Shown here one piece after another: positions 17,316 through 63,669 of a stretch of DNA of 64,000 bases (positions are counted from its first letter, which is position 1; each line of letters starts with the position of its first letter). The stretch covers positions 103,106,001-103,170,000 of the forward strand of contig OZ024745.1 in NCBI GenBank assembly GCA_964016885.1, given 5' to 3'. Below the pieces are notes generated by a model, which saw only the letters and a list, made by a program, of their open reading frames with translations, did no database searches and was not told the DNA's origin. The stretch is from Eledone cirrhosa. Its lineage: Eukaryota. The translations under genes and the position numbers were made by a program.

Positions 17316-17377
17316 ATTAATATAATATATATATATATAATATATATATATATATAATATATATATATATAATATAT

Positions 17378-17411
<34 letters not shown>

Positions 17412-17582
17412 ATATATATATATAATATATATATATATAATATATATATATATATGTAATATATATATATGTAATATATATATATGTAATATATATATAT
17501 GTAATATATATATATGTAATATATATATATGTAATATATATATATATAATATATATATATATATAATATATAATATATATAA

Positions 17583-20500
17583 TCATCATCATCAACGTTT
17601 AACGTCCGTGTTCCACGCTTGCATGGGTTTGGACGGGGGTAGTCCCACTTGAGGCAAGAGTGGTTGTCTTGCTCGCATAGGACTGTCTGGCAGGTTTTCT
17701 ACAGTTGGATGCCCTTCCTAACACCAACCACATTTACAGTGTGGGGCTGGGAGGTTTTTACCGTGTTGCCTACACGGCCACATTACAGCGTGGACTGTGT
17801 GTTTTTTTGTCGTGACACCTACACGATCTCATTTATTTCGGCCTGGATGGCGCGGCACCAACATAACTTTACATAGAACGGGGTGGTGTGGATGGGGTGG
17901 GGGTGGTGGCGGGACGGGGTGTATTTTGTTAGGGATGCCTACTGGCAAGGCGGGTCTTCTCTGTTACTGAGTACCGCCAAAGGTCTCGGTCCAGTGACAT
18001 TGTCTTGGAGAGGTGTAAGTGTGTGAGGTCGGAGTTTATCAGCTCGTCCCAGGTTTTTCTAGGTCTGCCTATTCCGTGGCTACCGTCTATCTTTATTGCC
18101 CTGCACTTTGTTATACAGCTATCGACTTTCATGCGCATCACGTGTCCATACCAACGTAGCCTTCTCTCGAGTAAACAACATCTGATCCCTCTTATCTCTA
18201 ATTTTCTCCTTAGTTCGTTTATGCTTTGCCGTTCACGTATATTACTGTTACACATCCAGCGGAGCATGCAAGCTTCGTTCCTCTCTAGTCTGCGTATATC
18301 CTCTGCACACAATGCCCAGGTCTCACTGCCATGCAACATTGCTGTTCGTATGCAGGCATCGTACAACCTGCCTTTCATTTTTAGGGAGAACCCTTTAGCA
18401 GCTAATAGTGGTATAAGCTCTCTGAACTTTTTCCAACCAGTTCTGACTCTAGCTACAGTACTTTCAGAGCACCCTCCCCCACTGCTGATTTTATCACCCA
18501 GGTAACGGAAGCTGTCCACTATTTCTATAGAACCCTCTGCGCAATTGAAAGAGCTAGTATATTATGGGCACTTGCTGCTACTTATTGCACCAGAACACCG
18601 GCCACATGTAAAATCTATGTTCTTAGTTAGCTTACCTGTGATCCCACTACATCTTTTATGCACCCATACTTTGCATTTAGGACATAAAATGGAGTTTCTA
18701 CCTACGCCTTTCCTACACACCGAGCACGACCATTTCCCAGAAGGGACCGCCGCCTTGTTTTCTTTCTTACAAACTAGAACTTTGGTCTTAGCCAGGTTAA
18801 TTTTAAGTCCTTTTGACTCTAGGCCATGCTTCCATGTTTGGAATTTCTTCTCTAGCTCGGCCATTGATTCCGCTATGAGTGTCAGGTCGTCTGCGTATAG
18901 GAGTTCCCATGGGCAGCCTGTCTTGAACTCCTCTGTTATAGCCTGAAGGGCAATAATAAATAGTAGGGGGCTGAGAACAGAGCCCTGATGGACGCCAACT
19001 TTTACGCTAAACTCTTCACTATATTCGTTGTTAATTCTAACCTTGCTGACTGTTTCTTTATACATGGCTTGTATAGCCCTCACAAGCCATTCGTCAACGC
19101 CTAGTTTTCTAAGAGCCCACCAGATAATGGAGCAGGGGACTCTGTCGAAGGCTTTCTCCAGGTCGACAAAAGCTAAGTAGAGGGGTTTACCTTTAGCTAG
19201 GTACTTCTCCTGTAGTTGTCATACTATGAAAAGAGCGTCTGTGGTGCTTTTGCCTGACACAAACCCGAACTGCATTTCATCTAGGTCAATTCTCTCTCTG
19301 ATTAGTTGCGCTATTACTTTTTCCGTGACCTTCATGACCTGGTCGATTAATTTAATGCCTCTATAGTTACTCCTATCTAGGGCGTCTCCTTTACTCTTAT
19401 AACAGTTAACGATGATGCTGCTATGCCAGTCCTTCGGAACAACCCCATTCTGTACGACTTGGTTAACTATGCGGGTGACCATGGTGTGTCCCACCGTGCC
19501 AGATGCCTTCAGCATCTCAGCAACTATTTCCGAAGGCCCAGCCGCCTTACCCGTCTTCATATCCTTGATTGCCTTACTTATTATACTCCCCTCGACTAAC
19601 ACTGCTGGTCCCTCTATTGGGTCGATATGGGGGAGACTGTCTTTCTCCCATTTATTCTCCTCATTTAGTAGCCTTTCATAGTGACACTTCCAAGCTACCT
19701 TCTTATCAGTGTCGGTGATGGCAAGTATGCCATCATCGTTAAGTACACACTTCTCCCCGACAATATCACGGTTTTCCTTGACGCATTGCCTAGCAATCCT
19801 GAACACCTCACGTTTTTGGTCATCGCGTTGTAGAACATGCTTGAACTTTCTTTCCTCAGCTTCCCTTCTTGCTAAGTACACTTCTCTCCTAGCTTCCCTC
19901 CTGGCCACTTGATAGTCTACTCTACTTCCCCCATCCCGCCATACTTTCCAAGCCTGCTTTTTGGCCTTAATTGACCCCTCCACCTTACTGTTCCACCACC
20001 ATGTTACTCTCCTCCTGCCTACAGGCCTGCTCCAGCCACAGACTTCGTCTGTCGCCGTCAGCAGGTTTGCTTTCAGAAATTCCCACTGTCCCTCTATATT
20101 GTCCGACTCTAGATGCTCTTCCTTACTGTCGAAAGCATCAAGTAATATGCTTTGAAATTTATTTCTGGCTGTGGGGTCCTTTAGCTTCGATATTTTCCTC
20201 CTGAGGATAGTCCTCTTCTGCTGTCGAGTACGTCTCGTCCTGACTATGAGGTCGCTAATTATCAGTCTATGTTGGGAGGTGCATTCTTCATGGGGGAGGG
20301 ATTTAGTGTTTACAACAGACACTCTGTCACGTCTTCTGGTAAGGATATAATCTACCTGGCTTGTGTGTTCCCCGGATCTATAGGTGATCAGGTGATTGTC
20401 ACATTTTTTTAAGTTAGTGTTACAGATAGTTAGGTTATTTGCATCACAGAATTCCAGGATTCTGGAGCCTTCCTCATTTCTAGTACCAAACCCATAGCCT

Positions 20501-21126
20501 CCATGGATTTCATCGTAGCCGTCACAATGTTGTCCAACGTGACCATTTAGGTCGCCTGCAATAATTATATAGTCACTGTCAGATATTTGGGAGGTAGTTA
20601 GCAACAGTGTCTCATAGAATCTGTCTTTTATAGTGCCGGGCAGTCCGGATTGGTGTGCGTACGCAGATATTACTGTCACCGTAGTTCTATTGAGGACAAG
20701 TCGTATTTTAATTATTCTGTCGTTCACTCTATTTACGTCTATTATCTTATCTGTCCACTTTTCTGCTACCATGATTCCTACTCCACCCAGCCCATCGTCG
20801 TTTCCCACCCAGAAAAGCTTATAACATCGTTTTTTACCCTCAATGAATCTAGCAGACCCACCCCTCCACCTGGTCTCTTGAATACAACAAACATCGACCT
20901 CCTTACGTTCAAGCATTTCTACAACCTCGTTAGCACGACCCTTTAGGGTGCCTACATTTATGGTACCAACTCTGAAGTTTTGGATTGCGTTTGGAGGGTG
21001 GGGAGATGGGGTTATGTTAGCCATCCGCGGACGAAACAAAGAGGAGTGCTCGCATTCTCGTCCACGAGGTGAATTTGACTTTAACTTTGGCATTTTCGCT
21101 CTGAGCGTCCAGATTTTTCTCTCCCT
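17583..21126 (-). mobile_element. Near full-length RTE-clade LINE, subfamily A, inserted in (TA)n
   Basis: APE endonuclease, RT, PHD-type finger, RTE C-terminus, 3' UTR and (GAT)n tail. Confidence 0.96.
17929..21093 (-). pseudogene. RTE polyprotein (APE endonuclease + RT + PHD finger), one frame with two premature stops
   Basis: ORFs 19219..21405, 18562..19083 and 17929..18519 share a frame. Motifs: GTINVGTL, CIQETRW, GDLNGHVG, QVDYIL, SQHRL, NYRGI, FVDLEKAFDRV, QGSVLSPLLF, YADD. Stops are TGA at 19219 and TAA at 18562. Probable start is ATG 21093 or 21024. Confidence 0.95.
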
Positions 21127-21230
21127 ATAATATATATATATATATATAATATATATATATATAATATATATATATATAATATATATATATAATATATATA
21201 TATATATAGTATATATATATATAATATATA

Positions 21231-21268
<38 letters not shown>

Positions 21269-21449
21269 ATTATAAGTGTAAAGAGCAAATAGACAAAAAT
21301 ATACCTAACTTTTTCTTTAAAGTCCCATCTATACAAGTTTACCATTTGGTATGCAGTCAGCATGCAATTAAAATGCACTGGGGCTGTGAGGTTATTGGCT
21401 TGCAAAGAGTCTCCTCATATATATATATATATAAAACTGGGTTTAAGAG

Positions 21450-21857: not shown

Positions 21858-22207
21858 AGACATGGCTTAGTGGTTAGAGCATTGGGCTTGCAATCGAAAG
21901 GTTGTGAGTTCAATTCTCAGACCGGGTGATGTGTTGTTTCCTTGAGCAAAATACTTTATTCCACATTGCTCCAGTTTACTCAACTGTAGAAATGAGATGA
22001 TAGGACTGGAGTCCATATCATTCCACTGCAAAGTGGTCGTGGAGGTGCCACAGCAAAAAAGTACCCAGCACTCACTGTAAATAAGGTTGGTGTTGGGAAG
22101 GGCATCCAGCTGTAGAAATCAAGCCAGAATCAGTTCCCGTCCCACCCTTGCAAGCAGGGAAAAGCAGACGTAAAATGAAATGAAATGACGTAAAATGAAA
22201 TGATGAT
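21858..22207 (+). mobile_element. CORE-type tRNA SINE with RTE-derived tail, family B
   Basis: TGGCTTAGTGGTTAGAGC...GAGTTCAATTC head, CCTTGAGCAA...CTGTAGAAATGAG core, GGAAGGGCATCCAGCTGTAGAAA tail. Confidence 0.9.
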
Positions 22208-29530: not shown

Positions 29531-29907
29531 TTATATATATATATATATATGTATATATATAAAGGGTAGGATATTTAGACACAGAAAATAACTTTCAGAT
29601 ATGAGCTGACTGTTGTCAGTCATTATTTAGCTCACGGGTTAGAGCAGTGAGCTGGTATCTGAAAGATATGAAGTTCAATTCTTTGCAGTAACCACTGGCA
29701 ACTTTTGTTACATATATATAAGGGGTCTTTACCAACTGTATTTACAATATTTTTTTTAAATCCGAGTTTCCTACATTTTCTATGAGCCTCATAACCACTT
29801 AATATATATATGTGTGTGTGTGTAAAAGAGTGCTATACATATATACCTATATATATACATATATCAATGATATTAATAAATGGAAACTATATTTATAAAA
29901 CCATATT

Positions 29908-29968
29908 TATTCTATTATATATATTTCAAGGGTACCAAAATTTTGGTACGCTCTCATCAGATAAAATA
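29908..29968 (-). ncRNA. Minimal type-I hammerhead ribozyme (mirror copy)
   Basis: Exact reverse complement of 30097-30157. Confidence 0.75.
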
Positions 29969-30096
29969 CAGATCTTGTTTTATAAATATTGACATATCCA
30001 GGAATGAGACTTTAATGGTTCAAGTTTTACCTGGATAAAACTTGAACCGTTAAGGTCTCATTCCTGGATATGTCAATATTTATAAAACAAGCTCTG

Positions 30097-30157
30097 TATT
30101 TTATCTGATGAGAGCGTACCAAAATTTTGGTACCCTTGAAATATATATAATAGAATA
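30097..30157 (+). ncRNA. Minimal type-I hammerhead ribozyme
   Basis: TATTTTAT CTGATGA GAGcGTACCAAAATTTTGGTACcCTT GAAA TATATA TA|ATAGAATA. Intact core, 8-bp stem I, long stem II, palindromic stem III; predicted cleavage after 30149. Confidence 0.8.
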
Positions 30158-30290
30158 AATATGGTTTTATAAATATAGTTTCCATTTATTAATATCATTG
30201 ATATTATACTCCAGAAAACTTGTCGAGTGCTTCGAATCTGTTATAAATATATATATTTGTTGAATTACCAACAAATTAAATATCCCTTTG

Positions 30291-30328
<38 letters not shown>

Positions 30329-33955: not shown

Positions 33956-34346
33956 CATCATCATCACCGTTTTACGTACGTTCTTCCACGCTAGCATGGG
34001 TTAGACGGGTTGTCCTGTTGTGGGCAGTGTCCGGTCGGCTGACCTTGTCTTGCTCTTACGGGAACTGATTCTGGCTTGATTTTCTACAGCTGGATGCCTT
34101 TCCTAACACCAACCTCATTTACAGTGAGTGCTGGGTGCTTTTTTTTCCGTGGAACCTCCACAACCACTTTGCAGTGGAATCATAGGAACCCCAGTCCTAT
34201 CATCTCATTTCTACAGTTGAGTAAACTGGAGCAATGTGAAATAAAGTGTCTTGCTCAAGGAAACAACACATCACCCGCTCCGAGAATTGAACTCGCAACC
34301 TTTCGATTGCAAGCCCAATGCTCTAACCACTAAGCCATGCGCCTTC
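33956..34346 (-). mobile_element. CORE SINE carrying the RTE subfamily B 3' end
   Basis: Family B head and core; the tail matches 16330-16515. Confidence 0.9.
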
Positions 34347-34439
34347 ATATACATATTATTTACAGATGTTTAGGTGAACATATAATGACATATATTTATT
34401 ATTTACACATATTTAGTTATGTTTGATATTACACAGGTT

Positions 34440-37885: not shown

Positions 37886-40112
37886 TTCATTATACTACAA
37901 ATGCATATATAGCAGTTTAAACCACTGCATATCCGAATGCATATATGTATGTAAATCTATTTTGTTTAAAAGTCAAAGTTGTCAATGAGAAAAAGATGTT
38001 GATTTAATCTATCTATTTATTTATTATTTTCCATACTACTTTTTTTATTGAAGCAATGTCATCTGAAAGAGTGAATGCCATGATGCCAAACAATTGTCCA
38101 AATGTATATGTAAAACAAATATTAAAATGTCATTCTGACCAATGTCAAGACTTGAAAAAAAAATTAAAAATTGATAAATAAATAATTGTAATGGTTATCA
38201 TTGTTAAGTTATTATTTAATGAATTAAACACTTACATGATAAATCACATTTTAGAAAGAAGGAAGAAAAACCAGCTGAAGGAAGGAAAATGCATTTGAGT
38301 GAGAAATGGAAGAAAATAATTTTCTCTTAATGCTGCCATCATTCTGACAGCTATACAGAAATGGTAAAGGATTTTTAAAATATTTTTTTAAAAATCCATG
38401 TCTTTTGAGCCCCATTAAATGACATATCCAAAATTGACTTTATGTTGTTTTTTTATTTCTATTCTTTAAATTCAATTTTATTATATTTTTATTTTTATTT
38501 TGCTTACTTATTTTTTATTATTTTTAGCTTGAGATGTTTTTGTTGCTAATTCTGGTGTTTGTGGATGAGGAAAGATGATAGTCAATTCTGATTGGATTTT
38601 TGTATTTTCTCTCCTGGAAAATTACTCCAAGAATCCACAAAACATGTGTGCTTATATATATTTATGTGTGTATGTGTGTGAGAGAGTAAAAGATGTTTGA
38701 GTGTTAACAGACTCGGTTGTGTTTGTGTCAATGTAAAAATGTGTGAAAGAGAAAGAGAGAACATGCATGTTTGTGTGTTTAAAAGCTTTATGTGTTTAGA
38801 TTATATGTTAATGTTTGTGCGTGAATAGGTTTATAAATATTAAAGCAAGCACAAATTTGTATATGTTGATATACTTTTTGTACTGCATGAGTTCAGTTCC
38901 TAGTTATGCCATTTCCTTGTAAATACTATTCATATTTGAGCCATTTTTTATGGGAGCATCTACATGGTTCCACGGCCTGCTAGAAATTGCAGCCAAATCT
39001 TATTCAAATCACATTTTACTATCCAAAAACATAGAAGAAAGAACACATTGGTTAATATAAGCATAGATAAACCATCCCTGAAAAATGAAATAGTATTTTC
39101 AGTGTCGTTGACACAACAAAAAAAGCGTCAAGTCCACCCTGTAAAGTGGTTATGTTAGTGACATGGCAAAAAGTGGTCAGTCCATCTTGTAACATGGTCG
39201 CTTTGGTGCCACAATAAAAAGCACCCAGTACACACTTTAAATGTAGTTGCCATTGGGATGGGCATCTAGCCATAGAAACCAAGCCAGAAACAGTTTTGTA
39301 TGAGCAAGACATGGTTAACTGAGTGACTCATCTTACTATAGGACAACTAGTCTAACCCATGTGAGTGTGGAAACATGGATGTTAAATGGTGATGATGTTG
39401 ATCATGAACATCTTTGACCTTGTTTTATGGATCAAGCTTTACCTGTAGATAAGCAACACAAAACTACCATCAACTCCACCACAAGCAGGACTACCACATA
39501 GAAGATTCTACATGGTTGCTCAACCTGTTAAATATGGTTACCAAATATCCTTCAAATCACACCTTATGGCCTTTAAAAAGGAAGAGCACATTGAATAATA
39601 TAGTTCTAGATAGACCAAGCCTAAAAAGTATGAAATGTTGATCTCATTTGAAATGTTTTTGCTCTTAAGTACGAGGAATCAAGGTTGACCTGGGTCCAAA
39701 GTAACAACATCAACAATATAAAAGGTCGTTAATCTACAGGCCAGCCTAGGTCAAGTAAATCTGACCAAATGTGTTCAAACCATGATAATTCTATTTTTGT
39801 TTCAAGTATTTGTAAATCATTATATTGGAAAATGCAAACATGTCTTTTTTTTATATAATTCTTTACCAAGAGAAAAGAGTGAATGACCTGAATCGACACA
39901 ATATATCACTCAACAAAGCATCCCTGCCCCCTCCTCTCCTATATATATCATCATCAAAGTTTTATGCTTCCATAATGGATAAAAACCATCTTGTTTCTTA
40001 GACAGGCAGGAGAATAATGAATGAGAGATAGATAAAGAGAGGGAAGGAGGGAGAGAGAGATACAGCATAGTGTTTATCATCAGAATAGGAATATAGAGGA
40101 ATATATATATAT

Positions 40113-40152
<40 letters not shown>

Positions 40153-40153
<1 letters not shown>

Positions 40154-40979
40154 ACGATAAATTAACGGAGCCATGGGCCCTCGCCATTCCCTGTAAATAA
40201 TGTGCTCAAAGGAGAAGAAATCCTGAGCTCTTTAAAATACAATATGTTGAAAAGGTAACACACCAGAGAGAGATATACAGTGTGCTATCAATAAAACAGG
40301 GAAAAAAAACACCAGTGTATGGAATCTATAACCTATGAAAGGCAGACTATAGACACGATAATTAAAAATATAAATTAAAGCGTAAATAAATACCTCTATA
40401 ACTATATAACACACGAGATGTTTCGCCAGTAATTTGTTGACAGAAATGGAATAACCCCGGTTCATCAGTGTGTGTAAGGCTATACATTTCAGACAACACT
40501 AAGAGAATTTTAAAAGTGACTGTCCAGCTACACGTGGGAGAGAGAAGTCACAGCGTGTTTAAGGGCAGTGAACCAGTGGCCTCTGAGGGACGAGCTGCTA
40601 GAAAGGGCAGCCCAAAACCACTCAGAGAAGTGTGCTCAACCAAACAATAAGGAGCGAAATATCACGATAAATTAACGGAGCCATAGGCCCTCGCCATTCC
40701 CTGGAAATAATGTGCTCAAAGGAGAAGAAATCCTGAGCTCTTTAAAATACAATATGTTGAAAAGGTAACACACCAGAGAGAGATATACAGTGTGCTATCA
40801 ATAAAACAGGGAAAAAACCACCAATGTATGGAATCTATAACCTATGAAAGGCAGACTATAGACACGTGTCTATAGTCTGCCTTTCATAGGTTATAGATTC
40901 CATACACTGGTGGTTTTTTCCCTGTTTTATTGATAGCACACTGTATATCTCTCTCTCTGGTGTGTTACCTTTTCAACAT

Positions 40980-40986
<7 letters not shown>
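40153..40986 (-). mobile_element. Fold-back insert H2: 510-bp unit present ~1.4 times plus a ~120-bp inverted arm, in (TA)n
   Basis: Direct repeat 40153-40357/40663-40866; loopless palindrome centred at 40865/40866 (arms 40747-40865/40866-40986). Confidence 0.85.
40409..40475 (-). ncRNA. Degenerate type-I hammerhead motif
   Basis: Minus strand: ACACACA CTGATGA aCCGG...CTGGc GAAA CATC TC GTGTGT. Core boxes are intact; stems I and III are imperfect. Confidence 0.55.
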
Positions 40987-41018
<32 letters not shown>

Positions 41019-41020
<2 letters not shown>

Positions 41021-41244
41021 CGAAGGAAATGTGGTAAGGAACCAGGTGGACCATAACGCACCAAAGTACTCAATACTTAGGGTAGTAGAGTGGGTAATAG
41101 GAACGAGTAGGACCCCGACGGCTGAGCTCAAGCCGTTTCGACGGCTAATTCTGGACTAAAATCTTAGTCCAGAATTATATAAAATTTTAGTCCAGAATTA
41201 GCCGTCGAAACGGCTTGAGCTCAGCCATCGGGGTCCTACTCGTT
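41019..41244 (-). mobile_element. Fold-back insert, family H3
   Basis: Arms 41102-41162/41184-41244; contains hammerhead 3' half GAAA CGGCT tgagctc AGCCG TC|GGGGTCC; (TA)n flanks. Confidence 0.85.
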
Positions 41245-41469
41245 ACTATATATATATATATAACTATATACACACACAAATACTCTGCTATTGCTGCAAA
41301 TTCCACCACCCTTAACACTAATTGATTTGATAGGTCAACAACCCAGTGATAACAACAATTCTATAGCCAGAGTCTGACAATTACCAGTCACTCATAAATC
41401 CCATTTGTATAGATATATACTTAGAATAAATGAACCCTTCAATAGTATGGGCATTTGTGTGAATGTGAA

Positions 41470-41645: not shown

Positions 41646-42002
41646 CACTGTAGAAGTTTGGTAGAAAAATCCACTTAGTTCTTAGGATGAGTTTAGTACA
41701 ATAATTACAAGTGTCATAAACAGGTACTTAAGTTTGGTTAGGATCTGGACCCCACATCATTCAGCCTGTCATAAGAGAAATAAAAATAAAGATGGCCGCC
41801 AGAGATTGATTATGATTTACTCTCAGAAATATAACTTTCTAAATTACCTGCCTTTGTTTAAACTCTTATGATATATTTCTGAGAGAAAATCACAATCAAC
41901 CTCCGGTGGCCATCTTTATTTTTATTTTTCTTATGACAGACTGAATGAGTTGGTGTCCAGAACAAATGGTTAAGTACCTGTTTATGTTACTGTTGTAATT
42001 AT
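41646..42002. mobile_element. Older fold-back insert in (TA)n, ~130-bp diverged arms
   Basis: Arms ~41701-41833/41871-42002; no ribozyme core recognised. Confidence 0.7.
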
Positions 42003-43805: not shown

Positions 43806-44200
43806 AGGGCGGTGGATTGGCAGTACCAGTAGAGGGTCGGACGCCATGCTTTGACGCATAGAGTTACGCCCCTTTCCATTCTGAGTTCAAATCCTGCCGA
43901 GGTTAACTTTGCCTTTCATCCTTACGGGGTCGATAAAATAAAGTACCAGTAATGCACTGGGATAATTGCTGGCCTTGTGCCAAAAGTAAAAACAATTATT
44001 ATTATCATTAGGTGGATTGGCAGTATCGGTAGAGGGTTGGACGCCATGCTTTCTAGCATAGTTATGTCCCTTTATGGTCTGAGTTTAAATCGCATCGAGG
44101 TTAACTTTGCCTTTCATCCTTACGGGTTGATAAAATAAAGTACCAGTAATATACTGGGTAATTGCTGGCCTTGCGCCAAAAGTAGAAAATAATTATTATC
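43806..44200 (+). mobile_element. Tandem dimer of family A SINEs
   Basis: Two full copies separated by an ATT tail. Confidence 0.9.
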
Positions 44201-45103: not shown

Positions 45104-45443
45104 CATCATCATCATCATTTCATTTTACGTCCGCTTTTTCCCTGCTTGCAAGGGTGGGACGGGAACTGATTTTGGCTTGGTTTCTACAGCTGGATGTCCT
45201 TCCTAACACCAACCTCATTTACAGTGAGTGCTGGGTGCTTTTTTGCTGTGGCACCTCCACGACCACTTTGCAGTGGAATGATAGGGACCCCAGTCCCTAT
45301 CATCTCATTTCTACAGCTGAGTAAACTAGAGCAATGTGAAATAAAGTGTCTTGCTCAAGGAAACAACACATCACCCGGTCTGAGAATTGAACTCACAACC
45401 CTTCGATTACAAGACCAATGCTCTAACCACTAAGCCATGTGCC
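45104..45443 (-). mobile_element. Family B CORE SINE inserted in the minisatellite
   Basis: Full copy; CTAGT is present on both sides. Confidence 0.92.
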
Positions 45444-45719
45444 TGCTAGTGTACCAATAAAATGTACTCAGCCCACACTATAAAGTGGTAGTGCTGGTGC
45501 CATGATAAAAAAAGCACCCATTCTACGCTATTAGGTGGTAGTGGTGGTGTCATAGTAAAAAGACATTTGATACACACTGGGAAGTGGTTGGCATTAGGAA
45601 GAGTATCCATGCATAGAAACCATGTCAAAATGGAACATATGAGAGAGAGAAACCTGTCCAACCCATGGAAGCATAGAAAATAGAGGTAAGATAGTGACAG
45701 TCGGTGGTGATAAACATAC

Positions 45720-46559: not shown

Positions 46560-46990
46560 GGTTTCTTATTTAGGCACAAGGCCAGCAATTTGGAGGGAGA
46601 GGGAAAAATTCGATAAAATTGACCTCACTTCATTACTGGTACTTTATTTTATCAACCCTGTAAGGATGAAAGGCAAAGCTAACCTCGGTGGGATTTGAAC
46701 TCAGAACGTAAATGGCCGTAACTCTATGTCGTGAGGCATTATGTCCAACACTCAACCAATTCTGCCAATTCACCACCATTAAAATTATAATAATAATAAG
46801 GGCGGTGGATTGGCAGTATCGGTAGAGTGTCGGACGCCATGCTTTTCAGCATAGTTACGTCCCTTTACAATCTGAGTTCAAATCCCGCCGAGGTTAACTT
46901 TACCTTTCATCCTTACGGGGTCGATAAAATAAAGTACCAGTAATGTACTGGGTAATTGCTGGCCTTGTGCCTAAAGTAGAAACAATTAAA
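46560..46990. mobile_element. Head-to-head pair of family A SINEs
   Basis: Minus copy 46560-46780 and plus copy 46799-46990. Confidence 0.88.
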
Positions 46991-47719
46991 ATTATAATAA
47001 TAATTCTATAGTTGAGTCAAGAGATCAGATCCATTAATATCCCTATTTTCTTGGTACTGAAACTTATTCCCAAAATTTTGACATACTTAATCTCAATTTA
47101 TTTTTATCTGGAAAATCTTTCATGTTATTTATCAATCCTCTTCTGTTATTGAAACTTTATAATTATTCAAATCTCTCTACTAGTTGTGTCAAATATTACA
47201 TTGAGTAGATGATTTTTTTTTAAATCTTTTTTTCTGGGTCAATAACTGTATTTGAAATTATATCTATACACACACATTAAAATTGTTTTTTTGTTTTAAT
47301 ATATTGTTTTTACTTTAAAAATGGTTTCTACCTCAAATTCTATGGCTTATTATTTTACTGATGTTAGTGCTCTTTTATATCTATTTGCATGAGCAGTTAA
47401 ATGATTAGTGACACTATTTATTAATAAAACTACAGTAGACAGTTTCACAGAGATATTCTACATAGTGTGGCTGATAATATATACTTTCTGCTCTCACACT
47501 CACCTACACATTTTAAAATAATCTTCACTCCATTCAAACAAATTTGTCATATTTTGTTTTCATTTCATTGTATTGTTGAATTTTTGCTTTTTACTTTAGT
47601 CTTTGAAAGATCCAAACACAAGCCAGCCACCCCCTTCTTCGAGAGATTACCTGCAATATAAAGTATCTTTAGATTGCACTGTGTATATAATCTGATGTAC
47701 TAACAATATATATATTCTG

Positions 47720-48081: not shown

Positions 48082-48388
48082 TCATCATTTCATTTTACGT
48101 CTGCTTTTTCCCTGCTTGCAAGGGTGGGATAGGAACTGATTCTGGCTTGATTTCTACAGCTGAATGCCCTTCCTAACACCAACCTCATTTACAGTGAGTG
48201 CTGGGTGCTTTTTAGCCGTGGCACCTCCACGTCCACTTTACATCTCATTTCTACAGCTGAGTAAACTGGAGCAATGTGAAATAAAGTGTCTTGCTCAAGG
48301 AAACAACACATCACCCAGTCTGAGAATTGAACTCACAACCTTTCGATTGCAAGGCCAATGCTCTAACCACTAAGCCATGTGCCTTCAT
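48082..48388 (-). mobile_element. Family B CORE SINE
   Basis: Matches 45104-45443 with a small internal deletion. Confidence 0.92.
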
Positions 48389-48601: not shown

Positions 48602-48850
48602 GTGTGTCTGTATGATTGTGTGTCTGTATGTCAGTCAGTATGTCCAGCTGTCTGTCTGTCTGCCTGCCTGTCTGTCTGCATGCCTGCCTGTCTGTCTGTC
48701 TGCTTGCATTTCTGTCTGCCAGCTTGTCTATCTGCCTGCTTACCTGTCTACCTCTCTGTCTGCCTGTCTGCCTGCCTGTATGTCCATCTGTCCATCTGTC
48801 ATCTATATATATTTATCCATCCATCTGTCTATCTAGCTATCTATTTATTT
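48602..48850. repeat. (TCTG)n/(CCTG)n/(TCTA)n low-complexity tract
   Basis: Seen directly. Confidence 0.9.
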
Positions 48851-48854
48851 TATT

Positions 48855-51800
48855 CGGGTCAATGCGGCCGGACTTCTTCCATCGTCTGGAGACTTTTCTA
48901 GGGACGTCCCGCTCCTTGCTATTAGTGGGGGACTGGAATGGTATCCTAGATGCACGCTGGGACTACGTAGGGGCCTGCCCCGATAGAGAGGGGTGTAATA
49001 GCCTCAAAGGGTTTATCGGTCGATTTGACCTGGCCGATAGATATCGACTAGATTTTCCGACTGCGCCAACCTGGACTTGGGCAAATCGTAGCGGATCATC
49101 TAGGTCGTACCTAGATAGGTTCTTAGTTAGAATTAAGGATAAGGACTTTTTAAGTTGTCCAAAAATGCGCATGGTTGGCTATTCAGACCACAAATTAGTG
49201 ACCTGCATGGTCAACCTTGACAGAACTCATAGACAGGGCCCCGGTTACTGGAAGCTCAACTTGTCCTTGCCGGCAAGTAGAGCCTACAGGAATCGGATTA
49301 GTACGTTAGTTAAGGAACGGTTGACTGGAGCGATCGTCAACAGCAGGTGGTGGGTATCTCTAAAGAGAGAGATTAGATTAGTCTCGATAGAATTTAGTAA
49401 GGTTCTAGCTGCGGATAGGAATAGGAAGGAAAGGGAGCTAATAGATAGAGTAGAAGAAGCAATTAGAAGCGGCGACGTGGCCAGAGTGCTAGCGTCGAGA
49501 ACGGCTTTGAGCCAGTTTTTCGACGCGAAGCACGAAGGCTGCGTTGTCCGAAGTAAAATACGTGCTCTAGGGAACGAGGGGACCAAAGCTGTTAGCTGGG
49601 CCCGCGTGACAGAGGCCAACAGTGGAACTAAATCCACCATCCGGTCTTTGCGAGACCTGGATGGACGGGCGATTCTTGAGCCTAAGCAGATGTGTGAGGC
49701 CTTTCAAAGGCACTTTGCCTGACTGTTCGGGAGGGGCGGGGAGCCGGTTGGGAACGTGGACTTCGGTCCATACCTCGACGGCCTGCCGCGCCTCTCGGAC
49801 AGGGAGGCGAAGTCCTGCGAGGAGCCGATTTCGGCCGCTGAGATAGAGGACGTGCTGAGCCAATGCGGCAAACGCAAATCCCCGGGTCTCGATGGTCTTC
49901 CTTACGAATTATATCTAGCTATGCCGGACTTGTTCCCCGATCTCCTCGAGGCGGTCTACTGCAACTGGCAACAGAACGGGAGAATTCCCTGTACTGTGAC
50001 CAAGGGCGTAGTCACGCTAGTGAGGAAGGACGAGAACAAGGGGGACGAAATAAGTAACTTCAGGCCCATAACACTGCTAAATACAGAGTTACAGATTTTG
50101 GCCAAGGTGCTAGCAAAGAGGTTGGCGCTTGTCGTGGGCAACCTGGTGGGAGATGCGCAGACATGCGCTATCCCGTCCAGGTCCATCCATGACAACCTCC
50201 ACCTCATGCGATACATCATAGAGAGGGTTGGGAACGAACCCGGCTTTGGTGGGGCTCTGATCAACTTGGATCAATCTAAGGCGTTCGATAGGGTCGACCA
50301 TGGTTACCTGGATGCGGTGCTAGCGGCGGCAGGCTTCGGACCCGTTTTCAGGGGCTGGATCACTGCTATGCACAGCAGCCGCATCTGCTCTAGGGTCAAG
50401 GTGAACGGCTACCTCTCGGAGCCGTTCAAAATCGCGCGGTCCATCCGACAAGGGTGCCCTCTCTCCTCCCTTCTGTATGTGTTGACTCTCGAGCCACTAC
50501 TGCGGAAGTTGGAGTTGTTGCAGGGCATCCCTTTGGAACCGGGATTGCGGAAAGCGGTGTCGGCCTACGCCGATGACGTGACAGTAATGGTGTCGACGGC
50601 CTCCGAAATCGAGGCGGTCGGCACCTTACTGGAGGAGTACGAAAAGTTCACAGGGGCTAAGCTGAACCGGGACAAGTCGATCGGTTTGCAACTCGGCACG
50701 TGGAGGGGCAGACCGATGCCCACCGATGGCGTCGTCGGACGCTGGACGGAGGGCCCGGTGAAGTTGCTCGGGGTCTGGTTCGGACCGGACCTCCAGGTGG
50801 AGAAAAACTGGGCGGAGGTTACGAACAGGGTGTTTGCACTGACCCAGAAGTGGGCCAGTTGCAAACTATCCCTGAAAGGTCGGGCGGAGGTGGCGAACAC
50901 CTACATAGCGTCCGTCATCTACTACCGCCTGACCGTAGTGCCCTGCCCAAGGGAAACCCTCACCAAGATGGAGCGCGCGCTCTTCCAATTCCTTTGGAAG
51001 AGGCGGGCTCCTATGGTGAGGAGATCCATCTGCTGTCAACACCCTTCGAAAGGAGGGCTGGGGATGCCGTGGCTAATGATGCGTAAAAACGCATTAAGGC
51101 TACGGCACCTCTACGTATTCCTCACCGGACAACCGGTGTGGGCCTCGTTTGTGAGACGAACCTTTCCCAGACTCGTCTCACTCACCGAGCTGCAATCCTG
51201 GGTCAAGCAAAGACCGAGAAAACTGGGCGCCTGGCACACTGAGTGTGCCCAGGCGCTCACCGCCCTCTGGCAGGCGGATCCGGTTATCAGTGGAGACTCC
51301 ACCGCAACATTCTATAGAGGGCTGGTACGCAGCAGGTGCGACAACGCCCTCGGAGAAGCCCTAGACATGGAGGAGGACGAACTGGCCAGCCTGTTCGGTA
51401 GGACATTCAGCCCGGGACCTATGGACAACTTCTAGAAGTCCCTGGCCTGGCAGTGCTACCGAGGGGCTTTACCCGTTCGAGAAAGGCTCTACAGACACGG
51501 GCGCCCGGGTAGGGACCCCGCCAAAAAGATCTGTCCCAGATGCGTGTGCGACGAGGAAACCGTTGCACACGCATTGGTACACTGCTCGGGCGTAGCCGAT
51601 CTGTGGGGCTATGTCGAACAACTGCTGTCAAGGGTGGGACCGATCCGGTTGACCACCGAGTCTATTGTAATGATCAAGCCGCCTCCCCCCTTCAAAGATG
51701 AAGCAGAGGCGGTGTTTCTGTGCGTAATAGCCATGGCGAAAGAGGTTGTATGGTGGACGCGTCTGAAAGGACTGAGGTCAGGCACCTTTCTCTCTGGCCA

Positions 51801-52212
51801 ACAACTGGTCCGTTTCTTCCGATATCATTTCGGAAGAAGGATCAGGATGGAGAGAGAGGTGCTGCACCCCAGCCGTTTCTATGAAAGATGGGTGAAAGTG
51901 GCGAGAATGGCCCGTGTGAATGGGCCTTCACTCTACATCAGACTATAGGTGAGGAAGATGAAAGACCAAGGGAGCACCCCTTCTCTGTGCTCCTGAGGAG
52001 AAGGGTTGCACACTTTTTTCGGGGGTGTGTGCGACCCCCCAAGGCGCCTCCTCTCTATTGAGGATTTTGTTAAAAATTTTATTTTTTGTTATATCTTATT
52101 TTATTTTTATATTTTGTTATTGCCTCCTCCTTATTGAGGACGCCTTTTTGTGTAAACTCCCCCCTTTGTACTTGTCCCACTTTTGATGCCCTAGTGGCAA
52201 ATAAAAGAAACA
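48855..52212 (+). mobile_element. 5'-truncated L1/Tx1-clade LINE with 17-bp TSD
   Basis: TSD TATCTATTTATTTTATT at 48838-48854 and 52213-52229; GC- and CpG-rich relative to flanks. Confidence 0.93.
48856..51948 (+). pseudogene. Tx1-type ORF2 (partial APE endonuclease, RT, C-terminal CCHC), two in-frame stops
   Basis: GDWN, YLDRFL, SDHKLV, GPGYWKLN, KSPGLDGL, NFRPITLLN, LDQSKAFDRV, RQGCPLS, YADDV, CPRC..EETVAHALVHC, all in one frame. Stops are TGA 49720 and TAG 51433. Confidence 0.94.
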
Positions 52213-52863
52213 TATCTATTTATTTTATTTGATGTTTGCCCATGTCTTTTCTCTCTCTTCAATATTTTTTTAATCATTTTCTTCCAGTCTTCTCTTTTCT
52301 TCTCCCACCAAATCAATCTTCTCTTCTTTCTGTATATATTTTTTTTTTTTTTGTTGAAGAAAGATCTAGTATTCTGAAACATGTTAAGACTCTTTGTTAC
52401 TACTTTTAAGCATTAAACTAATACCATTATTGTAATGCATTGTCCTCTGGTGGTGTTTTATTCATTATTTTACTTTTATCTATCTATCTACTTATCTATC
52501 TATTTATCTATTTATCCATCTATCTATCTATCTATTTATCTCTATCTCTCTCTCTTTTTATCTATCTGTCTGTCTGTATGCATGTATGTCTGTCTATCTA
52601 TCTAATTATTTATTTATCAATAGATACTATATGTCTACAATAACTCCTGAGCTGGAGCTTAGCTTGACTAACTCAAATGTCAAGTCTATGTTTCAACCCA
52701 ACAAGAAATATCTCTCTCAGCAGAGAACGACTTATAACATTTAATGGGATGCAAAGGTGTGACTCAAGCTGACAAATTCCTTATTGCAATATTAAGTATA
52801 AGATAATCCTGAATTGCTTTAATTCACTATTCTTCAAGGAAATATACCTTTAATTCAACTTTA

Positions 52864-53040
52864 TAATTGTTTCTACATTTGGCACAAGGCCAGCAATTAT
52901 CCCAGTGCATTACGGGTACTTTATTTTATCGGCCCTGTAAGGATGAAAGGCAAAGTTAACCTTGGCGGGATTTGAACTCAGTTCGTAAAGGGACGTAACT
53001 CTATGCTGGAAAGCACGGCGTCTGACACTCTACCAATAAT
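52864..53040 (-). mobile_element. SINE family A
   Basis: Reverse complement of the family A consensus. Confidence 0.9.
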
Positions 53041-53643
53041 GTTATATAAACAGGGTTTATTGAGGCTATCATGGGCTCATAACATTTTGCCTGGTGGAAT
53101 AAACAAACAGCATGATCAAAAAGGAGCAATAAGTGAAAAGGTTTGAAAAACCTTGGTTTAATGTTTCAAATTTGGGACCTACTAATTCTGTGTAATATTG
53201 ATGATAGAGTTGCCCCTGTTGTGTGTGTGTGTGAATCATAATAAATAATATCAGCTTTGTTTATGTAGAATAGAGAGTGCTCTTTCTTCTTGTTAATATT
53301 TTTGTGGCTCTTTACCTGAATTTTTTGAAGCAGAGTTACTTTTCACTTCAAAGGATTGGTATCAATTAGTCAAAGAAATTTAACACTGTACAGATACAAG
53401 GATTAACAATGATACAACAATATGATGAACCAGTTCAGGATAAACTACTCTACTAAAAACATTCCTACACCAACAACAAACTCTATTTTAAAACATTACT
53501 GGATAAAGTGGAAAATGTTGTTCACATGGTTGCATGGAGAAATTACCATCACAGCCACAGATCATTTTAATATCAAGCCCTATAAATATCATCCTAGAGT
53601 CAAAGATTTAGCACCATTTGAAACCAATCTCTTAGGTATGTTA

Positions 53644-54649
53644 TTTATATATTACTAAAAGTTTGTCATTGCCTGCTTGCTTGTCTGTAATGTAGTACAG
53701 CCAAAAGGGTGCATAATGGTAAAATACTTTGAAAGGAAGTTACCCCTGAAATGGAAATACAAATGGAATGAAACAAGTTTGGCGTAAATCGAAGCATGGG
53801 TTCCTGAGATGCAGGGTTTTCTGGGTACCTTCATAAACACAGTGAGAGAGAAAGATAGAGAGAAAGAGATAGTAGCTATGAGAGAGTAGATTGAAAGGGA
53901 GACAGAGAAAGGAGGAGAGGAGACAGAGAAGGAGAATGAAAGAGAGAGAGAGAGCTGGTGGGTGATGTTGTGTGTACATATATATATGTGAGTATGTGTG
54001 TATATATATATGTGTGTATATGTGTGTGTGTCTATGACCAGTGTATATAGATCACAGACACCCACATATATATACACACACACACATACATACATCATCA
54101 TCATCATCATCATCATCATTTTACGTCCGCTTTTCCCTGCTTGCAAGGGTGGGACAGGAACTGATTCTGGCTTGATTTCTACAGCTGGATGCCCTCCTAA
54201 CACCAACCTCCTTTACAGTGAGTGCTGGGTGCTTTTTTTTTCCGTGGCACCTCCACAACCACTTTGCAGTGGAATGATAAGGACCCCAGTCCTATCATCT
54301 CATTTCTACAGCTAAGTAAACTGGAGCAATGTGAAATAAAGTGTCTTGCTCAAGGACACAACACATCACCCGGTCTGAGAATTGAACTCACAACCTTACG
54401 ATTGCAAGGCCAATGCTCTAACCACTAAGCCATGTGCCTCCATCATATATATATATATATATATGTATACAAACACACATATTTATATATATATATACAC
54501 ACATGTATATATATGGGCCTTCCAGTTTCATTTCACATTATATACATGTCTGTGTATATTTTAATTATTTAAAAATTATTTTTAAGTGAACATGATTTTT
54601 AAAAAATATCTTGAAGTGAACGTCACCCAACGGGTCATGGGTGGTCTAG
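53644..54649 (+). mobile_element. Non-autonomous Helitron with nested SINE
   Basis: A|TTTATATATTACTAAAAG start (TC changed to TT), CACCCA/TGGGTG hairpin at 54624-54643, CTAG|T end. Removing it restores the flanking frame. Confidence 0.75.
54094..54440 (-). mobile_element. Family B CORE SINE
   Basis: Full copy with (GAT)n tail. Confidence 0.92.
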
Positions 54650-56374: not shown

Positions 56375-56917
56375 TCATCATCCTCACCGTTTTACGTCCG
56401 TTCTTCCACGCTAGCATGGGTTAGACGGGTTGTCCTGTTGTGGGCAGTGTCTGGTCGGCTGACCATGCCTTGCTCATACAGGAACTGATCTGGCTTGATT
56501 TCTACAGCTGGATGCCCTTCCTAACACCAACCTCATTTACAGTGAGTGCTGGGTGCTTTTTCGTGGCGCCTACACGTCCACTTTACAGTGTGGGCTGGGT
56601 GCTTTTTTGCCGTGGCACCTCCACGACCACCTTGCGGTGGGGGGGGGGGGCATATTGTTTATATGCTTCAGCATGTACCCATGGGAGGTCGGGTACCCTG
56701 TATTACTGCGTGACGCCAGAAGTCACGGTCGTGTGTCATTGACTTTGAGAGGTGTAGTTGGGTAAGGTCGGCTTTTATCACCTCATCCCAAGTCATCTTG
56801 GGTCTCCCCACTCCGCGGTTTCCATCAACTTCTAGTGCTCTGCACCTTTTTATGCAGCTGTCATCCTTCATACGCATCACATGTCCATACCAGCGTAACC
56901 GCCTCTCCTGCACGCAG
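56375..56917 (-). mobile_element. 5'-truncated RTE subfamily B
   Basis: Nearly identical to 16330-16874. Confidence 0.95.
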
Positions 56918-57025: not shown

Positions 57026-58200
57026 GATAATAATAATAATGAAATTATTGTGTACAGTGCTCTTGTGCATTACAACTCATCAAAGGTGCATGTATAGTAC
57101 ATAGAATAATGTACAAATATCAGGAAAATGAACAGTGTGTGAGTCATGAAATACATGTGTGCGTGTGTATGGGGGAGGGATATCAGATATAGTGTTGGCG
57201 AATCTCAGGAAGCATGGAGATTTTAAAGGATGCAGTGTCTCGACAACTAATAACTGATACAGGTAGTTTGTTCCATGCTTCAGCAACTCTGAGCATGAAA
57301 AAATGTTTCCAAAAGTCATGGGGGCTGTGCTGTTTTCTGACTTTGTTGGCATGCCCATGTGTGTTAAACACATGGAAATCAAAAAGGTGCTCAAGGTTGT
57401 TGTTGCGAGATGGTTAATAATTTTGTGGGTGTTTACCAAGTCAGTTGCCAGATGTCGGAGCTTCAATGTATCCATGCCCAGGGAAGCAAAGCGTTCAGAG
57501 TATGGTAGATGCCTGATGGAGGGTATTTGCTTGGTTGCACGTCTCTGAACAGTTTCCAGGCGATCAATGTTCTGAGCAAGATAGGGGTTCCAGACTGGTG
57601 ATGCAAATTCTAAGTGTGGCTGCACCATAGCTATATACAGCTTTAAATAGATAGCTGGAGAGTGGCTGACAAAGGTCTTGCTGAGTGATGCTAAGACACC
57701 CTCGGCCTTCTTGACAATTTTAGAGACGTGCTTCATCCAATGCAAATCGCTGCTGACAGTAATGACCAGGTCGCGTTCACAAGAAGACTTCTTGATATTA
57801 GTGTTGTGGAGGGAGTATGTGGACGCTGGGTTTTTACTCCCAAAATGCATGGTGGTACACTTATCCACAGCCAACTTGAGTTGCCAGTCCGTGATCCATT
57901 GCTGCATTGTGTCCAGGTCAGATTGCAGGAAAGATCTATAGTGTTCAGGATCTGTCCATTTTATCTCAAGGTACAGCTTGATGTCATCTGCATATTTCAG
58001 TACTGTGACATTCTTTAATTTGGCACCTATGTCATTAATATATGCCACAAACAAGCATGGGCCAAGAACAGATCCATGTGCTACACCAGATGACATCTCA
58101 TACGGTGAGGAATGCTGTCCTAGAACTGTAACTACCTCTCTTCGACTGAAAATGAAGGACTTCAACCAGTTAAAAAGATCATCCTTCAACACCCATTTCA
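57010..58200 (-). mobile_element. 5'-truncated CR1/L2-group LINE (RT remnant)
   Basis: SGVAHGSVLGP, YADDIKLY, ERDL, PHLEFASPVWNPY, LETVQRRATK, then a frameshift into FFMLRVAEAWNKLP; (ATT)n tail. Confidence 0.9.
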
Positions 58201-58202
58201 TA

Positions 58203-58276
<74 letters not shown>

Positions 58277-58281
<5 letters not shown>

Positions 58282-58640
58282 AGAAAACGAAAAATCAGTG
58301 ATGCATCTGGACTTAGTTTATTTTGTGTTACAAATGTTTCGCCGGCATGTAGCTCGAGTCATGGTCCTTGTATGGATCTGGCTGATTCTACTTCTGATAA
58401 AATTTGCTCCGGACATAACATCCGTGTCTGAAAGAACCTGCAGAAGTAGAATCTGCCAGATCTATACAAGGACCATGACTCGAGCTACATGCCGGCAAAA
58501 GATTTGTAACACAAAATAAACTAAGTTCAGATGCATCACTGATTTTTCGTTTTCTTGATAATATCTACACTCTACTCTGATGAATATCAAGTGCTAATTT
58601 TGGCATACCGCCTACGGAAGCACCATAGCTACCTCTATAC

Positions 58641-58645
<5 letters not shown>
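58277..58645 (+). mobile_element. Fold-back insert H4 with 120-bp arms, in (TA)n
   Basis: Arms 58277-58396/58441-58560 with 5 mismatches; 44-nt spacer; unique 3' extension. Confidence 0.85.
58424..58512 (+). ncRNA. Degenerate hammerhead with long stem II insert
   Basis: GTGT CTGAAAGA aCCtGCA...TGCcGGc AAAA GATTTG TA|ACAC; the inverted arm preserves GAAA CATTTG TA. Confidence 0.5.
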
Positions 58646-58702: not shown

Positions 58703-58904
58703 ATAGGAATGAGTAGGACCCCGACGGCTGAGCTCAAGCCGTTTCGACGGCTAATTCTGGACTAATAGTCCAGAATTAGTCGTCGAAATGGCTTGAGCTC
58801 AGCCGTCGGGGTCCTACTCGTTCCTATTACCCACTCTACTACCCTAAGTATTGAGTACTTTGGTGCGTTATGTCCACTTGGTTCCTTACCACATTTCCTT
58901 TGTT
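58703..58904 (+). mobile_element. Fold-back insert, family H3
   Basis: 62-bp arms 58703-58764/58766-58827 with a 1-nt loop; (TA)n flanks. Confidence 0.85.
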
Positions 58905-59423: not shown

Positions 59424-59605
59424 TTGGCAGTATCGGTAGAGGGTCAGACACCATACTTTCCAGCATAGTTACGTCCCTTAACGATCTGAGTTCAAATCCC
59501 ACCGAGGTTAACTTTGCCTTTCATCCTTACGGGGTCGATAAAATAAAGTACCAGTAATGTACTGGGTAATTGCTGGCCGTGTGCCAAAAAGTAGAAACAA
59601 TTATT
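59424..59605 (+). mobile_element. SINE family A
   Basis: Matches the family A consensus. Confidence 0.9.
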
Positions 59606-59996
59606 AAACAAAAACAAAAACATTACTAAAAAATCTAGACAATGATGAATCAATAGAGGAACCTCCATTTGATTGTTCAACCTGCTAGAAATAGCAGACA
59701 AATATTTCTCAAAAACACTCTATTATCTTAAAACAAGAATCCTAAATTGGCCATTACTTTTCATCGTCGTATAATGTGTGTGTTTGAACAAAATACAAGA
59801 TGGACATAGTTAGAATACTTTTTATCATAGGTGTGCTTTATCAGGACTAATCTAGAACCAAAGAACAATGACGATGAAAGGAAACAATGTGTAGATGATT
59901 TGTAAGATGACTCTTGAGAACATTTAGAACAAGATAGCATGAGGCTATGTCAGTTTTGTGGAAGATAGCTTATTTATCTGCATTATTGTTTCTAAC

Positions 59997-60400
59997 AAGG
60001 GCGGGGGAGTGGCAGTATTGGTAGAGAGTCAGACACCATGCTTTGAAGGATAGAGTTACGTTCCTTTATGATCTGAGTTCAAATCCCGCCGAGGTTGACT
60101 TTGCCTTTCATCCTTACGGCGTCGATAAAATAAAGTACCAGTAATGTACTGGGTAATTGCTGGCCTTGTGCTTAAAAATAGAAACAATTATTGTTTCTAA
60201 CAATGAGGCAGGGGATTGGCAGTATCAGTAGAAGGTCGGACGCCATGCTTTGCAACATAGAGTTACACCCCTTTATGGTGTGAGTTCAAATCCCGTCGAG
60301 GTTAACTTTGCCTTTCATCCTTACGGGGTCGATAAAATAAAGTACCAGTAATGTACTGGGGTAATTGCTGGCCTTGTGCCAATAGTAGAAACAATTGTTG
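59997..60400 (+). mobile_element. Tandem dimer of family A SINEs
   Basis: Two copies; ATT(A/G)TTGTTTCTA(A/G)CAA recurs before, between and after them. Confidence 0.9.
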
Positions 60401-60419
60401 TTTCTAGCAATGGTAGCCT

Positions 60420-63067: not shown

Positions 63068-63288
63068 TAATGAAGGAGTTGTGGTAAGGAACCAGATGGA
63101 CCATAACACACCAGAGTACTCAATACTTAGTAGTATTGAGTACTCTGGTGTGTAGTGTAGTAGAGTGGGTAATAGGAGAAAGTACGACCCGGACGGTAGA
63201 GTTCAAGCTGTTTCGATGGCTATTTCTGGACTAAAGTAAGAGTTTTTAGTCTGGTAAGTAAATTACTTACGAGACTAAAAACTCTTAC
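63068..63288 (-). mobile_element. Family H3 copy with two short fold-backs
   Basis: Palindromes at 63106-63127/63132-63153 and 63236-63261/63263-63288. Confidence 0.75.
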
Positions 63289-63336
63289 ATATACATACAT
63301 ATAAATATATATATATATATACATATAAATATATAC

Positions 63337-63669
63337 ATCATCATCATTTTACGTCCGCTTTTCCCTGCTTGCAAGGGTGGGACAGGAACTGATTCTGGCT
63401 TGATTTCTACAGCTAGATGCCCTTCCTAACACCAACCTCATTTACAGTGAGTGCTGGGTGCTTTTTTTCCGTGGCGTCTACACGACCACTTTGCAGTGGA
63501 ATGATAGGGACCCCAGTCCAATCATCTCATTTCTACAGCTGAGTAAACTGGAACAATGTGAAATAAAGTATCTTGCTCAAGGAAACAACGCATCACCCGG
63601 TCTGAGAATTGAACTCACAACCTTTCGATTGCAAGCCCAATGCTCTAACCACTAAGCCATGTGCCTCCA
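63337..63669 (-). mobile_element. Family B CORE SINE
   Basis: Full copy. Confidence 0.92.

Follow-up and report, generated by a model that had tools for sequence, protein, structure and literature searches.

A partial tandem with a loopless terminal inversion and one imperfect hammerhead motif in Eledone cirrhosa: a probable insertion by Penelope-like machinery

Results

Layout and boundaries of the element

The element occupies positions 40153-40986 of a 64 000-nt stretch (the window) of Eledone cirrhosa contig OZ024745.1, with a (TA)n tract on each side (Table 1). Its parts are ordered A-B-A-inverted part of A, where block A measures about 201-205 nt and block B about 305-309 nt, and the GC content of the unit is 0.40. 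An earlier sequence-only reading had described a direct repeat of about 205 bp at a 510-bp period, flipping without a loop into an inverted arm of about 120 bp, and alignment confirmed both. The direct repeat (40153-40357 versus 40663-40866) is 97.6% identical over 205 nt (E 1e-96, BLAST against the window), with a spacing of 510 from start to start; a 1-nt indel reduces this to 509 at the far end. The palindrome centre lies exactly at 40865|40866 with a spacer of 0 nt, and the arm, 121 bp long, reaches 40986; the inversion matches itself at 97.5% over 242 nt. We set the orientation of the element by the strand of its hammerhead motif; read in that sense, it presents an inverted piece, a truncated copy, a longer copy and (TA)n.

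The two copies of block A (A1 and A2) differ by four substitutions and one indel in 205 nt. The inverted arm has a private 2-nt expansion, shares an A-tract with A2 and shares one base with A1. A1, A2 and the arm are equally diverged, with private changes only, and the arm has one allele of each copy; these differences fit a single event followed by about 1.2% decay per copy.

The left junction reads ...ATATAC|CACGAT and the internal one ...AAATAT|CACGAT. At each outer junction there are 3-4 nt of TA microhomology, and the inverted arm is without the terminal 84 nt. Copy 1 has at most one extra base (40152), and the 30-40-nt tail that is an optional feature of Penelope-like (PLE) insertions was not seen there. 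A 10-bp stem-loop (40186-40163; helix probability 0.96) is predicted about 10 nt before the 3' end of copy 1.

Table 1. Coordinates of the element's parts and of two dispersed repeat families in the window
Feature	Position	Strand	Basis or remark
Left-hand (TA)n target flank, on the element's 3' side in RNA sense	40101..40151	.	sequence
First copy of block A, forming the unit's 3' part in RNA sense	40153..40357	-	repeat alignment
Block B, single occurrence, holding the hammerhead and a strong hairpin (40627-40581)	40354..40662	-	helix probabilities 0.98-1.0
Variant, with one indel, of the 13-mer at the start of block A	40354..40365	+	position equivalent to the inversion centre
Type I hammerhead-like motif, PLE minimal kind, core letters intact	40409..40475	-	putative cut between 40415 and 40414
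Unit junction 40662|40663	40654..40666	+	11/13 nt identical to the minus-strand GAAA/cut-site segment
Block A copy 2 (5'-truncated second pass, pseudo-LTR)	40663..40865	-	repeat alignment
Inverted arm, palindrome centre perfect	40866..40986	+	3-nt microhomology to the TA tract at its end
(TA)n tract, right target flank	40984..41019	.	unrelated palindromic element next, 41020-41249
SINE (about 320 bp) copies	21860-22172, 34058-34348, 45120-45444, 48083-48388, 54120-54443, 63344-63668		
185-205-bp family	59424-60412, 43807-44188, 46631-46998, 1460-1646, 52860-53041		

One imperfect hammerhead-like motif

The single hammerhead-like motif already noticed on the minus strand stood up to closer analysis. 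It comprises CUGAUGA at 40468-40462, GAAA at 40424-40421 and C17 at 40415; the arms of stem I lie at about 40475-40470 and 40414-40409 (6 bp), and stem II has 4 bp, by eye extendable to 8 bp with a bulge; GAAA is followed by a 4-nt loop and then UC. The motif with its stems occurred in 0/20000 dinucleotide shuffles of the unit, an optimistic figure in that the descriptor was relaxed to fit the motif after it had been seen; the core letters alone occurred in 830/20000. Rfam found no ribozyme at its gathering threshold in the whole window, none among the 42 matches at E<=5 in 39900-41400, and 0 matches at E<=10 in 40360-40662. The 42 matches were mostly to hairpin-driven miRNA models, which we dismissed as reflecting hairpins only.

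Minimal hammerheads of PLEs are described as having an extra base after A9, a G10.1-C11.1 pair and a palindromic loop III (PMC4209133), and the motif resembles these in its extra nucleotide after A9 and its 4-nt loop III spacing. It departs from the consensus in three ways: an A10.1/C11.1 mismatch, a non-palindromic loop III, and a stem I that is one nucleotide out of register; two of these defects could be single-base indels. The active hammerhead fold lies 6.3 kcal/mol above the predicted minimum. Three departures in about 30 constrained positions compare with 0.36 expected at the age of this copy (P about 0.006, or about 0.05 if two departures are counted instead of three). Since the departures exceed what the age of the copy predicts, the parent ribozyme was probably already imperfect, unless assembly indels contribute.

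The motif sits in the unrepeated block B, so the locus has one ribozyme copy; with one ribozyme, placed outside the repeat, this copy cannot cut out a monomer or release a circle. Measured from the cut site, the left end lies 262 nt away and the position equivalent to the fold 61 nt away, and no end or junction of the element falls on the minus-strand cut site.

On the plus strand of the unit the relaxed descriptor found no hammerhead motif. The 3' half of one is present at 40634-40663 (a 4-bp stem II, GAAA, a palindromic UA, and UC), with no 5' core or stem I; it would cut one base from the unit junction. We rejected a plus-strand RNA as the main reading: that orientation offers no CUGANGA and no stem I, and would place the inversion at the 3' end. 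Solo hammerhead-like cores occur elsewhere in the window at 48458 (-), 13986 (-) and 26173 (-), that at 48458 passing the relaxed descriptor with stems.

Coding content and further copies

The element had been described as free of any protein-like ORF, and we agree. Its longest wholly internal frame is 88 aa from stop to stop, and none of its 11 frames has a Pfam match above cut-off; a TGF_beta_GS match was dismissed at 17 bits versus the cut-off of 21.3. A search of 1.84 billion proteins returned one match to the 88-aa frame (E 1e-5, 919 aa, 12 short stretches all falling on query residues 23-41), a pattern that suggests composition. The 51-aa frame across the unit junction, used as a probe for copies recorded as spurious proteins, found no candidate at 28-90 aa. 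No coding homology was found in the 194 nt upstream or the 262 nt downstream of the ribozyme. The telomerase-like RT and GIY-YIG ORF of an autonomous PLE was found neither in the element nor among the 278 non-low-complexity window ORFs of at least 55 aa, which do include RT and endonuclease domains of LINE type.

A BLAST search of the 64-kb window with the element as query returned only the element itself. One exact 22-mer found no copy in the GTDB genomes, which are prokaryotic, and blastn of the unit found none among plasmids and phages; none was expected in either set. Simple patterns found no Pol III boxes in the element.

Broken LINE ORFs with endonuclease and RT domains lie at 16628-21414 (-; with a PHD finger), 48616-51945 (+; with a zf-RVT domain) and 57083-58294 (-); among the 120 matches listed for the window's LINE RT, Octopus vulgaris, at 68%, is the one named eukaryote, which hints weakly at a cephalopod. 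The host DNA is rich in AT and in microsatellites. A weak SMN Tudor match at 1834-2010 (+; E 0.003, below cut-off, 28 residues) could be a host exon.

Palindromes and other repeats in the window

Near-loopless inversion in TA tracts is a common signature of this region, so that the loopless flip of the element is not special in itself. Our palindrome catalogue has 13 rows at 11 loci; leaving out three loci made of simple repeats, it holds this element and seven others. Spacers are at most 6 nt in four of these seven (1, 1, 4 and 6), and an arm ends within 5 nt of a TA tract in five, with 10% of the window lying within 30 nt of such a tract. Two of the seven bear hammerhead cores, directed away from the centre in both, as in the element.

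One of these palindromes, at 29861-30295, has 169-bp arms, a 6-nt spacer, a right extension of about 85 nt and (TA)n on both sides, each arm containing an outward-pointing type I hammerhead core (29861-30204). Another, at 58277-58645, lies between TA tracts with 120-bp arms and a 44-nt spacer, and its right extension holds a degenerate hammerhead-like core at 58577. The palindromes at 41020-41249, 58703-58903 and 63068-63290 form one small family, each copy in (TA)n and with one end shared; their fold-back sites nearly coincide, their loop remnants differ, and no complete hammerhead was seen in them. The first of the three shares a TA tract with the element. Further decayed palindromes lie near TA tracts at 41704-41999 and 11247-11287.

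The SINE of Table 1 is 84-94% identical between copies and has a tRNA-like head (Rfam tRNA in four copies). The dispersed family of about 185-205 bp, SINE-like by eye, also occurs as head-to-tail dimers and as a palindrome. A 534-bp repeat (16341-16874 versus 56387-56917) is 99.3% identical, a very recent copy.

Unit junction, predicted fold and a 12-13-mer at the boundaries

The similarity of the unit junction to the opposite-strand cut-site segment (Table 1) means that, in the RNA, the junction could pair with the ribozyme core. The post hoc chance of such complementarity is about 0.005 for these two places; about 1.2 matches of the 11/13 kind are expected anywhere in the unit, and many features were looked at. 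The ATAT before the junction continues the TA microhomology of the target. No helix of note is predicted across the junction (2.7 expected pairs; 37% of the circle's cut points have as few), and we found in the predicted fold no structure there that would serve as proof of a circle.

Folded as a circle, the minus strand of the unit has a z of -3.6, the copy-2 permutation -2.6 and the plus strand -1.5, the unit being 62% paired versus 57% in shuffles. A z of -3.6 was matched by 5/48 control strand-windows, controls that had only 12 shuffles each and that include other repeats. The predicted fold is branched, not rod-like.

The 13-mer that starts block A recurs in a 12-nt variant at the start of block B. 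Only three of 127970 window positions score as well for this 12-13-mer, and all are boundaries of the element: 40153, 40354 and 40663. Ancient homology of blocks A and B was rejected, their best local score being reached by 526/1000 shuffles; they share nothing beyond the 12-mer, whose placement alone is odd. The 12-13-mer may be an RT start/stop signal, a nick signal or an old target-site duplication. A long hairpin is predicted at 40424-40306, and its tip is about 7 nt from the inversion centre. By inspection, an intramolecular snap-back without loss of a loop cannot yield this centre from the native sequence; a fold-back with loop loss between two CG dinucleotides would give it.

Discussion

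Insertion by PLE machinery

We take the element to be a PLE-type insertion, at a probability of roughly 0.9. It shows a partial tandem (pLTR) with a shared 3' end, an inverted 5'-truncated copy at its 5' end, a (TA)n target, and a type I (minimal) hammerhead in the pLTR with the three departures given above. Partial tandems, inverted 5'-truncated copies and (TA)n targeting are the reported anatomy of PLE insertions (PMC8557442), Octopus Naiad and Hydra families are listed as preferring (TA)n (PMC8557442 supplement), and 31 PLE families are reported as recently active in O. vulgaris (PMC13282606). In vitro, the anole PLE protein nicks AT-rich DNA on both strands, starts reverse transcription at internal RNA sites, and inserts without ribozyme cleavage and with target homology unnecessary (PMC11167929).

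The analysis supports the sequence-only reading in giving the locus a reverse-transcribed origin, to which we add the PLE-type machinery; its further step, from the 1.4-mer to a circle, is not supported. A partial tandem with an inverted 5'-truncated copy is an ordinary PLE insertion (PMC8557442), and an RT that restarts at a fixed internal site, such as was shown in vitro for the anole PLE (PMC11167929), would leave the same trace. A 1.4-mer is expected under three models: a circle, a tandem transcript, and truncation followed by re-priming from one and the same start. That PLE copies of more than one unit are made on circular templates was already proposed in 2014 (PMC4209133).

The account that we prefer, to which we give about even odds, is that the element is a dead copy of a unit that lacks ORFs, derives from a pLTR and was moved by PLE enzymes. 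A single retrotransposition event would have been carried out by a PLE RT/GIY-YIG protein supplied in trans. From what is known of PLE biology, the endonuclease would nick the (TA)n tract. On a minus-sense RNA, the RT would start at a point 262 nt downstream of the cut site and copy block A, then block B, then block A a second time; this anatomy is plain in the DNA, and the order of copying is our reconstruction. The template would carry a ready-made junction, being either a head-to-tail transcript of the 510-nt unit or a circle of it. Near the tip of the long imperfect hairpin, the cDNA would turn back or meet a sister cDNA to give the 121-bp inversion, which would be joined to the other TA end through the 3-nt microhomology. 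The copy is dead offspring: with its one imperfect ribozyme it can release neither monomer nor circle. That the junction was already in the template, i.e. that there is a real 510-nt unit, we hold a little more probable than its opposite; that this template was a covalent circle is doubtful. Weakly in favour of a templated junction are the ATAT that continues the target microhomology, the complementarity to the ribozyme core, the 12-13-mer at all three boundaries and the lack of coding homology on either side of the ribozyme, the junction evidence being post hoc. Our search of the literature on PLE fold-back mechanisms gave nothing specific among the matches listed.

Alternative origins

The strongest competitor, which we credit with somewhat less than even odds and place not far behind, makes the element the ordinary truncated end of an autonomous PLE and the 510 period an accident: the first cDNA would stop after 510 nt, within the non-coding pLTR, and its AT-rich 3' end would re-prime at the same internal start for another 205 nt and then invert. 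Most PLE insertions are reported to be 5'-truncated (PMC8557442; bioRxiv 10.64898/2026.07.22.740005), there are fixed internal RT start sites and ribozyme cleavage is dispensable in vitro (PMC11167929), no predicted structure encloses the junction, and truncated palindromic remnants are abundant in the window. This account leaves the complementarity of junction and core to chance (about 0.005 before correction for many looks), and there is no trace of an ORF on either side of the ribozyme, where the ORF of the anole PLE starts inside the ribozyme (PMC11167929). The 3' UTRs of two Hydra-clade PLEs, with 146 and 177 nt from stop codon to ribozyme (hand count, PMC8557442 supplement), nearly cover the 194 nt without an ORF, which counts against an ORF-less unit. 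On balance, an ORF-less 510-nt unit is the slightly better reading than a truncated PLE end.

As a special case of the preferred account, the unit could be the non-LTR retrozyme offspring of a ligated 510-nt circular RNA, with active ribozymes elsewhere in the family; this is the sequence-only reading in its strongest form, and we regard it as unlikely. Copied from a circle, an insertion can exceed one unit and have its ends elsewhere than at the cut site; the minus strand folds better than the plus (z -3.6 versus -1.5); inactive monomers are common in retrozyme families, whose consensus lengths span 51-972 bp (bioRxiv 10.64898/2026.07.22.740005); and some natural PLE hammerheads tolerate 10.1/11.1 mismatches (supplementary table of PMC8557442). 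Against it, there is one ribozyme only, the three departures exceed the age expectation (P about 0.006), pairing of 62% versus 57% seems to fall short of the highly self-paired circle described for retrozymes, and the circles validated in metazoans measure about 170-400 nt and mostly have canonical ribozymes (PMC7229834). An endogenised viroid-like circular RNA with hammerheads in both polarities, the minus one decayed and the plus one surviving as its 3' half, strikes us as very improbable, and so do its two corollaries: a plus-strand cut within one base of the unit junction and left end, and a 12-13-mer that acts as a fixed start/stop signal of the PLE RT and also sets the fold-back point. 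Neither a complete ribozyme on the opposite strand nor a rod-like fold was found. A less extreme version, in which the 510-nt circle belongs to an ordinary retrozyme family of cephalopods, we regard as unlikely.

Rearrangement of the DNA after insertion is improbable. A longer tandem would have been nicked at an AT-rich 12-mer of its own and then have folded back with loss of the distal part; or else the 12-13-mer would be a target-site duplication, block A having inserted into an older 305-nt ribozyme repeat. The 12-13-mer does flank both blocks, nicking by the anole PLE extends to AT-rich DNA of its own pLTR (PMC11167929), the centre is near the tip of the 40424-40306 hairpin, where loop loss between the CG dinucleotides would give it, and all three copies of the neighbouring palindrome family fold at nearly one site with different loop remnants. 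The equal divergence of the element's three copies, which fits a single event, counts against a later rearrangement, as does the fact that blocks A and B share only the 12-mer. Least credible of all is an artefact of assembly or of read fold-back. Chimeric long reads can produce loopless palindromes, but there are two differences between the arm and its neighbour, and at one of them the arm has the copy 1 allele, which counts against read fold-back; unique flanks continue on both sides, and similar structures recur in the window with 2-14% decay.

As a single locus, the element is ordinary PLE debris, of which the window is full. Should the 510-nt junction recur, it would mark a non-autonomous PLE family whose movement went on despite an imperfect ribozyme, and would bear on whether PLE tandems need hammerhead cleavage and circles, as was proposed in PMC4209133 and found dispensable in vitro in PMC11167929. 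Work on the mechanism of PLE inversion would find convenient substrates in short copies that are free of ORFs and have a fixed start, stop and fold point.

Comparison with known systems

With the PLE insertions described for the Hydra, Neptune, Poseidon and Naiad clades (PMC8557442) the element shares the partial tandem, the inversion at the 5' end, the (TA)n target, the lack of a readable target-site duplication and a type I hammerhead within the terminal few hundred bases. Unlike them, it has no RT/GIY-YIG ORF, its period is 510 versus 2-4 kb, and its inverted arm has an internal start and abuts the direct copy at the same nucleotide. The supplement of PMC8557442, in which line breaks could hide matches, shows none of five short motifs taken from the element, and the Hydra-1_Obim hammerhead given there differs by eye from that of the element.

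Animal retrozymes have been argued to be PLE derivatives (bioRxiv 10.64898/2026.07.22.740005), and among the open-access papers listed by our literature searches no title or abstract start describes one from a cephalopod. Like metazoan non-LTR retrozymes, the element is non-coding, has a GC content of 40% (<50%), a type I hammerhead and a head-to-tail repeat (PMC7229834; bioRxiv 10.64898/2026.07.22.740005), presumably depends on PLEs, and has a unit within the 51-972 bp survey range (bioRxiv 10.64898/2026.07.22.740005). It differs in its single ribozyme, 1.4 units, terminal inversion and imperfect stems, in being known from DNA alone, and in a unit longer, at 510 nt, than the validated circles of 170-400 nt (PMC7229834). 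The working definition of an active retrozyme is two consecutive units with complete ribozymes (bioRxiv 10.64898/2026.07.22.740005). The element, with one ribozyme in its unrepeated block, falls short of this; the defects of stems I and III, the lack of any boundary at the cut site and a fold that is not exceptional also speak against the earlier label of retrozyme-like.

Non-autonomous Chlamys PLEs (MRC1, Chlamydomonas) offer another likeness, being ORF-less, with pLTRs and head-to-tail insertions made by PLE enzymes; they are described as being without canonical hammerheads and are known as families, whereas here there is one copy (PMC8557442). Schistosoma SMalpha and W-elements, which form satellites with tested activity, are likened to the element by description: they too are hammerhead-bearing lophotrochozoan repeats, dispersed or in tandem, with many mutated ribozymes (PMC8490949).
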